A stretch of DNA of 64,000 nucleotides, from NCBI RefSeq assembly GCF_044324785.1, contig NZ_CP172127.1; one strand, 5' to 3'. The notes under the pieces were generated by a model. It saw only the letters and a program-made list of their open reading frames with translations, was not told the origin of the DNA and searched no databases. Source of the DNA: Escherichia coli (GTDB lineage Bacteria > Pseudomonadota > Gammaproteobacteria > Enterobacterales > Enterobacteriaceae). The translations under genes were made by a program, and so were the position numbers. This document shows, in pieces, positions 39,879 through 40,418 of the stretch; positions within the stretch are counted from its first letter, which is position 1, and each line of letters starts with the position of its first letter.

Positions 39879-39909
39879 GAGTTCCTGTCTTAAGCCACTT
39901 GCCGAAGTC

Positions 39910-39926
39910 AATTGGTCTTACCAATT
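39910..39926 (-). promoter_or_regulatory. PdhR operator (AATTGGT-N3-ACCAATT palindrome) in the pdhR promoter region
   Basis: Perfect 7-3-7 inverted repeat aattggtcttaccaatt 32-48 bp upstream of the pdhR ATG. Confidence 0.8.
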
Positions 39927-40418
39927 TCATGTCTGTGACGCTAAAGTAACAAAGTATTCACCTTATGTCCATACAGGTTTTGATTGAAATCATGAAACTG
40001 TGCACATTTTAACAACTTGACATATATAACGTTTCAAAGTTGTAACTATGCACAAATGTAGACTTTACGTAGGAAAGGTTTTTTTTAACGATTATTAAAC
40101 TATAAAAATCCGAATTGAACCGATTCACTTACCAATTTATCAATTTTTAATTCAAAAATAATGAATTTATATTCATCTTGTATATTGAGGGGATTTGAGG
40201 CTGACCTTTACAAACGGTTCCTTTTTAAGCAACTCATCTTCAACCATGCATAAAGCGGGTGCATTCGCTGCCGCATACCATTATTCTTGATCTGACGGAA
40301 GTCATTTTGTAACAATTCAAACGTCTTTGATGTAAACAAATTAATACAAAAAACGGAATTGCAAACTTACACACGCATCACTGCGTAGATCAAAAAAACA
40401 ATCACCGCACGAGGTTTC

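Follow-up and report, generated by a model that had tools for sequence, protein, structure and literature searches.

The interval under study lies at positions 39879 to 40418 of the window, i.e., the whole 64-kb stretch of Escherichia coli DNA that was analysed, and measures exactly 540 bp from the ATG of pdhR (39878, minus strand) to the ATG of aroP (40419, plus strand); aceE is the next gene after pdhR. An earlier reading, made from the letters alone (hereafter the sequence-only reading), had named it the pdhR-aroP divergent control region. This name was borne out by the flanking PdhR and AroP reading frames and by a comparison of the surrounding 1.1 kb with complete E. coli genomes, of which 5423 out of 5426 contain a match, with pdhR and aroP as the features annotated under it. 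The same reading had described an AT-rich spacer of 540 bp; the length is indeed exact, and the GC content is 34%, as against 51% for the whole window, with values of 25-30% between 39950 and 40200.

The counterpart in K-12 MG1655 (121552-122091) is likewise 540 bp long, and no annotated feature was found inside the spacer, either in MG1655 or in 30 RefSeq E. coli genomes among the matches listed. The window is oriented as the reverse complement of K-12, such that a K-12 position equals 161970 minus the window position. Alignment of the two spacers was gap-free at ~95.6% identity (4.4% of positions differ). They are identical from 39879 to 40079, the differences cluster at ~40139-40206, and none of them falls in the sites that were checked, namely the PdhR, TyrR and ArcA boxes and the FNR/CRP-type site. 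The identity to strain N3 is 99.6%.

For the phylogenetic footprint, PdhR was used as query and one genome was taken per species, which yielded 80 loci ranging from Escherichia to Serratia. The divergent neighbor was aroP in 77 of the 80, and the spacer measured 524-653 bp. Conservation within the spacer was found to take the form of short blocks typical of protein-binding sites. The features delimited in this manner, together with those mapped in K-12, are collected in Table 1. It is to be noted that the sequences, their positions relative to published starts, and the conservation values were obtained in this analysis, whereas binding and mechanism come from published work on K-12, whose sequence is identical or nearly so.

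Table 1. Features of the pdhR-aroP spacer and its flanks, in window coordinates.
Feature	Position	Strand	Remarks
PdhR ORF	39114..39878	-	from ATG
pdhR 5' untranslated leader, 58 nt	39879..39936	-	start 39936 to ATG 39878
PdhR operator AATTGGT-CTT-ACCAATT, AATTGGTCTTACCAATT	39910-39926		+11 to +27 of main pdhR start; exact, unique, conserved
pdhR core promoter	39943..39971	-	promoter sequence from PMC2759082 and Kim 2012
pdhR -10 TACTTT	39948..39943	-	for main start 39936; assigned by reading of sequence
Second TACTTT	39956..39951	-	for minor start 39945; assigned by reading of sequence
pdhR -35 TGGACA	39971..39966	-	assigned by reading of sequence
ArcA box 2	39943-39963 (K-12 122007-122027)		-27 to -7; overlaps core promoter; ArcA ChIP-seq, PMC3798270 supplement
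FNR/CRP-type site TTGAT-TGAA-ATCAT, TTGATTGAAATCAT	39980-39993		near-perfect
Conserved blocks CACATTTTAACAA; TATAACGTTTCA; TGTAAC..TGCACAAAT	40002-40057		without assigned factor; phylogenetic footprint
ArcA box 1, TAGTTTAATAATCGTTAAAAA	40082-40102 (K-12 121868-121888)	-	-167 to -146 of pdhR start; PMC3798270 supplement
Cra (FruR)-type palindrome TGAACCGATTCA	40116-40127		centre ~185 bp upstream of pdhR start
Second TACCAAT	40130-40136	+	most likely a chance match
Unconserved AT-rich junction	40130-40206		mean identity 0.40 over 77 taxa
Conserved block TTTACAAACGGTTCCTTTTTAAG (family consensus TTACAAATGGTTTCTTTTTA)	40207-40229		positions 58-100% conserved
Overlapping back-to-back promoters P1/P3	40252-40303		includes conserved AAAGCGGGTGCATTC (40252-40266)
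Divergent P3 -10 TGGTAT	40280..40275	-	hexamer mutated in PMC7142922
P3 putative -35	40303..40298	-	
aroP P1 -10 TATTCT	40282-40287	+	start 40294 (K-12 121676: SMRT-Cappable-seq, Kim 2012)
aroP P2	40287-40323	+	-35 TTGATC 40287-40292, -10 TAACAAT 40310-40316 (17-bp spacing), start 40323
Strong TyrR box TGTAAA-CAAATT-AATACA, TGTAAACAAATTAATACA	40331-40348		10/12 to consensus, G-N14-C kept
Weak TyrR box CGGAAT-TGCAAA-CTTACA, CGGAATTGCAAACTTACA	40354-40371		8/12, G2 and C17 kept; exact assignment by own reading
Small hairpin ACGCA-TCAC-TGCGT	40373-40386	+	aroP leader
C/A-rich stretch and Shine-Dalgarno region CAATCACCGCACGAGGTTTC	40399-40418	+	before aroP ATG
AroP ORF	40419..41792	+	

PdhR operator, pdhR promoter and upstream regulator sites

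The perfect AATTGGT-N3-ACCAATT palindrome, which the sequence-only reading had proposed as the PdhR operator at 39910..39926, held up. AATTGGTCTTACCAATT is the sole exact match within the 64-kb window, and its 14 half-site positions are 100% conserved across 78 Enterobacteriaceae taxa, while the central NNN varies (CTT, ATG, CAT, AAT, CTG). When up to three mismatches were allowed, the palindrome pattern produced 3 matches in the window against 3.5 expected, such that the exact copy alone stands out; by our own arithmetic, the expectation for an exact match to 14 specified bases in 64 kb is ~2e-4. Since the pdhR start is at 39936, the operator occupies +11 to +27, just downstream of the start, which we take to be the classical PdhR operator position (Quail and Guest 1995). 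Comparison with the published consensus, a 17-bp palindrome AATTGGTnnnACCAATT with a GGTnnnACC core (PMC7660256), gave agreement at 14 of 14 positions. In that source, the same K-12 sequence appears as a 14/14 PdhR box with by far the top genomic-SELEX intensity among the rows shown, and the GGTnnnACC core is given as a requirement for tight PdhR binding. The operator of the K-12 pdhR-aceEF-lpd operon is the identical 17-bp palindrome at an equal distance from the pdhR ATG and the mapped start; operator and core promoter show no difference between the two strains, and the window diverges from K-12 only further upstream. Binding of PdhR at this site and its release by pyruvate would be expected here as well, by extension from what is published for K-12, where the sequence is the same.

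The sequence-only reading had also pointed to a second half-site, taccaat, at about 40125. The sequence is indeed present, at 40130-40136, but the role assigned to it did not survive, and a chance match is the most likely explanation. It repeats the 7-mer that forms the right arm of the operator, and one could envisage that it assists the latter as an auxiliary PdhR half-site, for instance by DNA looping over ~210 bp; the K-12 PdhR SELEX peak position of 121966 (PMC7660256) falls between the operator and this 7-mer. However, such an auxiliary site appears highly improbable on several grounds. The 7-mer is conserved in no genus outside Escherichia, with 69 distinct sequences across 78 taxa at these positions, and it sits immediately past the last conserved block on the pdhR side, the Cra-type palindrome. 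A TACCAAT-type 7-mer occurs by chance in 11% of spacer shuffles. The second copy also lacks the GGTnnnACC core, and a search of the spacer for such a core returned none besides the operator. In the ST131 strain described below, the matching segment is a divergent allele, and the 7-mer was not found in the stretch inspected. The offset of the SELEX peak is probably a matter of array resolution. A chance match thus remains the preferred reading of the second TACCAAT.

The pdhR start has been placed by 5'RACE at an A that precedes the ATG by 58 nt and lies downstream of GTATGGACATAAGGTGAATACTTTGTTACTTTAGCGTCA (PMC2759082), and the main start is K-12 122034 in Cappable-seq (score 1290), Kim 2012 and SMRT-Cappable-seq alike. 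SMRT-Cappable-seq adds a minor start at K-12 122025 (0-based 122024), ~9 nt upstream, which corresponds to 39945 in the window. The core promoter, taken as 39937-39976, has a mean identity of 0.94 over 77 taxa. Two ArcA boxes, obtained from ChIP-seq with box prediction (PMC3798270 supplement), belong to this side of the spacer; the TTTAAC and GAAAC sub-blocks of box 1 are conserved. The centre of the FNR/CRP-type site is at -41.5 with respect to the minor start and at -50.5 with respect to the main one, and its half-sites are 96-100% conserved except for the last base, which is T here and G in 79% of taxa. In K-12, the locus falls within an Fnr ChIP-chip region (121581-122493, occupancy 37), where the listed effects are repression of pdhR and activation of aroP (PMC3974632 Tables S3/S4), and CRP has been assigned class II binding at the -35 region of pdhR (PMC5888115). 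We infer that it is this exact sequence that serves as the site for FNR/CRP. Tables S5/S6 of PMC3974632 (ArcA/Fnr motifs) carry identical rows for the locus and were not used for site assignment.

Conservation on the pdhR side continues in blocks out to ~40130. Among those without an assigned factor, TATAACGTTTCA resembles a Cra half-site and gives a 2-mismatch match to the Cra pattern at 40025-40036. The outermost block is the Cra-type palindrome TGAACCGATTCA, which at 1 mismatch comes closer to TGAAWCGWTTCA than any other match in the window (the motif as published is gcTGAAtCGaTTCAgc; PMC5888115), and its positions are 77-100% conserved in 78 taxa; the Cra pattern overall is not enriched in the window, with 11 matches against 9.9 expected. 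The palindrome may be regarded as a candidate Cra operator. Cra is described as a repressor of pdhR-aceEF-lpd, with its site placed downstream of two promoters (PMC5888115), a placement that does not fit the conserved palindrome upstream. A further, in-gene candidate for a Cra site, TGAATCGCCTCA, was seen at 39712-39723. Overall, the majority of the blocks conserved on this side correspond to published ArcA and FNR/CRP-type sites or to the Cra-type motif. When set against the known ArcA/FNR/CRP/Cra hub at pdhR, the locus agrees in that both ArcA boxes are identical in sequence to those of K-12 and the region lies under the strong Fnr ChIP signal; it differs in the conserved Cra-type palindrome, which is upstream of the promoters and not downstream as in PMC5888115.

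aroP promoters, TyrR boxes and leader

On the aroP side, the -10 hexamer of the divergent promoter P3 lies 2 bp from that of P1 on the opposite strand. The sequence TACCAyTATTCT is 65-100% conserved, and the P1 -10 is kept across the family, whereas the hexamers of P2, which were assigned by our own reading, are not conserved outside Escherichia. The P2 start is K-12 121647 in SMRT-Cappable-seq; for aroP as a whole, the K-12 starts 121676 and 121647 were taken from SMRT-Cappable-seq and Kim 2012. It is to be noted that the hexamers of P1, P2 and P3 and the start of P3 were reconstructed from start-site tables and a figure legend; the -35 elements of P1 and P3 are putative, and P3 would start near 40268. 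The UP element of P3 overlaps the P2 -10 (PMC7142922, Figure 2 legend). As cited in PMC7142922 and PMC3167631, divergent P3 was described in 1997; its activity in K-12 is very low, nearly silent (PMC7142922). The three-promoter arrangement is that of K-12 (Wang, Yang and Pittard 1997-1998), with the same TyrR boxes, the same P3 -10 and the same start sites when these are mapped onto the window. The differences from K-12 in this region are single-base changes at 40304 (beside the putative P3 -35), 40323 (the P2 start base) and 40350 (between the TyrR boxes).

A TyrR-box-like sequence at about 40332-40349 had been noted in the sequence-only reading and placed upstream of aroP. It is indeed the strong aroP box, shifted by one base to 40331-40348; its weak partner had been missed, and the implied position upstream of the aroP promoters was wrong. 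Both boxes lie in the transcribed aroP leader, at ~+38 to +78 of P1 and ~+9 to +49 of P2, i.e., downstream of both starts and upstream of divergent P3. The pattern TGTAAA-N6-TTTACA with up to three mismatches was matched 16 times in the window, against 25 expected in window shuffles, and the two mismatches of TGTAAACAAATTAATACA are equalled by another match at 5395. Since the sequence match by itself is not above chance, the case for the TyrR boxes is built on context, conservation and published binding.

The critical feature of TyrR boxes is G-N14-C. In the strong box, G2 and C17 are 100% conserved over 78 taxa, and the GTAAA and ATACA arms 95-100%, with variation in the central bases; in the weak box, G2, A16 and C17 are 100% conserved over the same number of taxa, and the GGA and (T)ACA arms 91-100%, again with a variable centre. 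The two boxes are 23 bp apart, centre to centre, a spacing that agrees with the same-face requirement for a TyrR box pair (PMC7142922). The deletion series in that study places the strong box nearer P3, and the weak box distal to P3 and nearer aroP. Both box sequences are identical to those of K-12, and TyrR binds the K-12 aroP-pdhR spacer according to Wang et al., as cited in PMC7142922. From the K-12 literature, TyrR would bind here also, with dependence on an aromatic amino acid at the weak box.

Two further elements belong to the aroP leader. The small hairpin at 40373-40386 has a predicted counterpart in most genera, at the equivalent position but with a stem of differing sequence (mean z-score -2.0, 57 distinct 30-mers). 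Beyond it, (A)CACGAGGTTT is conserved in the C/A-rich stretch ahead of the aroP Shine-Dalgarno. aroP is a verified target of GcvB via the R1 seed (PMC11878033). The probable pairing region here is 40399-40418, in which we infer the exact site.

The junction, PAIusp and the search for hidden genes

Between the two sides lies the unconserved junction, which carries most of the differences between the window and K-12. About 1060 of the 5423 matching E. coli genomes (~20%) have no contiguous match to the spacer, and two of these, CFT073 and ST131 strain 18044, were inspected. In CFT073, an IS3 and bacteriocin-immunity genes adjoin pdhR. In the ST131 strain, a usp gene (annotated tssD) and immunity genes are found between pdhR and aroP. 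Homology to the window stops there at 40068 and resumes at 40249, with an identity of only 83%, and the window segment 40069-40248 has no detectable match where PAIusp sits; the blocks conserved on the pdhR side persist in diverged form, the Cra-type palindrome among them, and copies similar to the 40207-40229 block flank the island on both sides. This insertion is the known PAIusp of the aroP-pdhR spacer, in which P3 drives usp (PMC7142922). The PAIusp strains thus share this spacer and carry the island between the equivalents of 40068 and 40249, whereas the window is without the island and has the empty-site, K-12-like arrangement, with a junction allele that differs from that of K-12.

It is possible, although we hold the view only tentatively, that at least one of three conserved blocks, i.e., the Cra-type palindrome at 40116-40127, the block at 40207-40229 or the hairpin at 40373-40386, is an undescribed element. 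The palindrome may then act on pdhR as a remote operator from ~185 bp upstream of its start; the 40207-40229 block, similar copies of which are found at either end of the island in ST131, may for that reason be where PAIusp recombines; and the covarying hairpin may be a regulatory structure in the aroP leader. All three are minor, and may already have been catalogued.

The sequence-only reading had further suggested that the spacer could hold an unannotated small transcript. Such a small RNA or short transcript from the AT-rich middle might arise, for example, from P3 or from a promoter divergent from pdhR. P3 does exist and is directed into the spacer, and a terminator consensus scan found no terminator-like site in the spacer, hence none between P3 and pdhR, so that any P3 transcript would cross the spacer. 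Cappable-seq lists an extra start at K-12 121774 (plus strand), which is 40196 on the minus strand of the window; its table covers the K-12 plus strand only, and a short transcript in the aroP direction could escape it. SMRT-Cappable-seq favours long RNAs and may under-sample short ones. Nevertheless, we consider a hidden transcript very unlikely. The start at 121774 has a threshold-level score of 1.55, as compared with 1290 for pdhR, and SMRT-Cappable-seq shows just four known starts in the spacer. Kim 2012, which covers both strands, contains no start between 121676 and 122034, and the activity of P3 in K-12 is, as stated above, very low. The K-12 start-site tables thus show the known starts and one marginal start; signal beyond the pdhR and aroP promoters is essentially absent, and the one extra promoter, P3, is known.

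Comparative and structural analyses pointed in the same direction. The middle is the least conserved part of the spacer, with a mean identity of 0.40 for 40130-40206, and in the ~20% of strains without a contiguous spacer no match to it could be detected. An Rfam scan of the spacer at an E-value of 10 returned no match except a meaningless U8, and RNA folding of 39972-40268 was ordinary on both strands (z-scores of -1.0 and -0.2). The hidden small RNA was rejected as a candidate, since no primary 5' end of its own beyond the threshold-level start was seen in the K-12 tables consulted and the scans showed no Rfam family, terminator, unusual fold or conserved body. A simple sigma-70 scan of 39700-40600 found no promoter; several promoters have been experimentally mapped in this stretch and none was detected, and the scan is therefore uninformative here.

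A small protein encoded in the spacer was weighed as well. Two reading frames are open in the window, one of 39 codons (40128..40009, minus strand) and one of 18 codons (40264..40208, MHPLYAWLKMSCLKRNRL). The latter begins a few bases after the probable P3 start, overlaps two conserved blocks and looked promising in three genera, and it keeps its 18 codons in 29 of 78 taxa. Over the whole set of 78, however, it has 11 codons in 18 taxa, has lost its start codon in 7, and ranges from 5 to 38 codons in others; on account of the lost starts and the unstable length, it was rejected. Of 76 distinct sequences, just 4, all of them from Escherichia, retain the 39-codon frame, which was rejected for this reason. 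Conservation in the blocks extends to all three codon positions, which indicates a constraint on the DNA and not on a protein, and the spacer carries no annotation in the RefSeq E. coli genomes among the matches listed. We therefore give next to no credence to a protein-coding role of the spacer.

Proposed operation of the divergent control region

We are highly confident that the interval represents the divergent control region already known for pdhR-aceEF-lpd and aroP, made up of two independent modules and a non-conserved AT-rich junction. In the pdhR module (39879 to ~40130), RNA polymerase would start at 39936 and, to a minor extent, at 39945, and PdhR on the palindrome at +11 to +27 would block its own operon until pyruvate releases it. 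ArcA would act through boxes over the -10/spacer and at -167 to -146, and FNR or CRP through the site at -41.5/-50.5; together with the Cra-type sequences, these inputs would place pdhR under redox and carbon-source control.

In the aroP module (~40207 to 40418), transcription would proceed from P1 (40294) and P2 (40323). TyrR loaded with an aromatic amino acid would bind the strong and weak boxes in the leader and activate divergent P3, and RNA polymerase held at P3 would exclude polymerase from the overlapping P1. In K-12, recruitment of RNA polymerase to P3 by TyrR and its cofactor, with exclusion of P1, has been described (PMC7142922, PMC3167631). Because the boxes lie at ~+9 to +49 of P2, TyrR could also block P2 directly. 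At the level of translation, GcvB would repress aroP.

Everything central here is published and already known: the PdhR operator and the TyrR boxes, promoters P1, P2 and P3 of aroP, regulation by ArcA, FNR, CRP and Cra, control by GcvB, and the insertion of PAIusp into the spacer. The value of the analysis is thus mainly one of calibration: a classic control region could be named from its sequence alone, without tools, whereas the speculation of a hidden transcript fails against published start-site maps and comparative analysis. For the family, the footprint cleanly resolves the spacer into three parts, with a disposable junction between the pdhR module and the aroP module, and flags a few conserved blocks that a specialist should be able to assign readily.

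Transcription starts and Cra-type sequences near pdhR

A simple sigma-70 consensus scan of window 39700-40600 returned zero promoter-like sites, although four or five starts have been mapped experimentally in this interval; the hexamers of all the mapped promoters are weak. Two Cra-type sequences were located near pdhR, one a conserved palindrome and the other a weaker match. Since Cra binding has been published as lying ‘downstream of two promoters’ (PMC5888115), the weaker match within the pdhR coding region fits the reported position better than does the upstream palindrome.

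In the neighboring pdhR-aceE spacer, the Rfam scan of the window placed a full-length match to the family tp2 (RF02030). The match scores 103 bits, where the family's gathering score is 50, and runs antisense to the pdhR-aceEF-lpd transcript.

Features in and around the aroP-pdhR spacer
Feature	Window	Strand	Other coordinates	Remark
tp2 (RF02030) match	38956-39069	+		
Weaker Cra-like match	39712-39723			TGAATCGCCTCA; within pdhR coding region
Spacer segment affected by island	40069-40248		ST131 locus L084, 6690-11475; CFT073 locus L002	
Conserved Cra-type palindrome	40116-40127			about 185 bp upstream of pdhR start
Conserved block	40207-40229		L084, about 6831-6853 and 11434-11453	consensus TTACAAATGGTTTCTTTTTA
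Small hairpin, ACGCA-TCAC-TGCGT	40373-40386	+		predicted, aroP leader

Spacer length and the aroP leader

The aroP-pdhR spacer is long in every one of the 77 other species compared (524-653 bp; loci L004-L083). In Klebsiella, Raoultella and some Citrobacter, its extra length is due to insertions in the aroP leader, which sit downstream of the TyrR boxes and ahead of the Shine-Dalgarno region. The small hairpin of this leader is predicted at the same position in most genera with differing stem sequences, such as CACA/TGTG, GCGTAG/CTACGC and CGGTG/CACCG, and its folding z-score averaged -2.0 over 57 distinct 30-mers.

Interruption of the spacer by PAIusp

A contiguous match to the spacer was absent from 1060 of the 5423 complete E. 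coli genomes (about 20%), and both genomes inspected among these carried the usp/immunity island PAIusp in the spacer, accompanied in CFT073 by an IS3. In ST131, divergence from the window was far greater on the aroP side, where the control region beyond PAIusp retained 83% identity, than on the pdhR side, which retained 99%. In ST131, PAIusp is bracketed by similar copies of the conserved block, which is kept across Enterobacteriaceae; these paired flanking copies would fit a candidate duplicated integration target.
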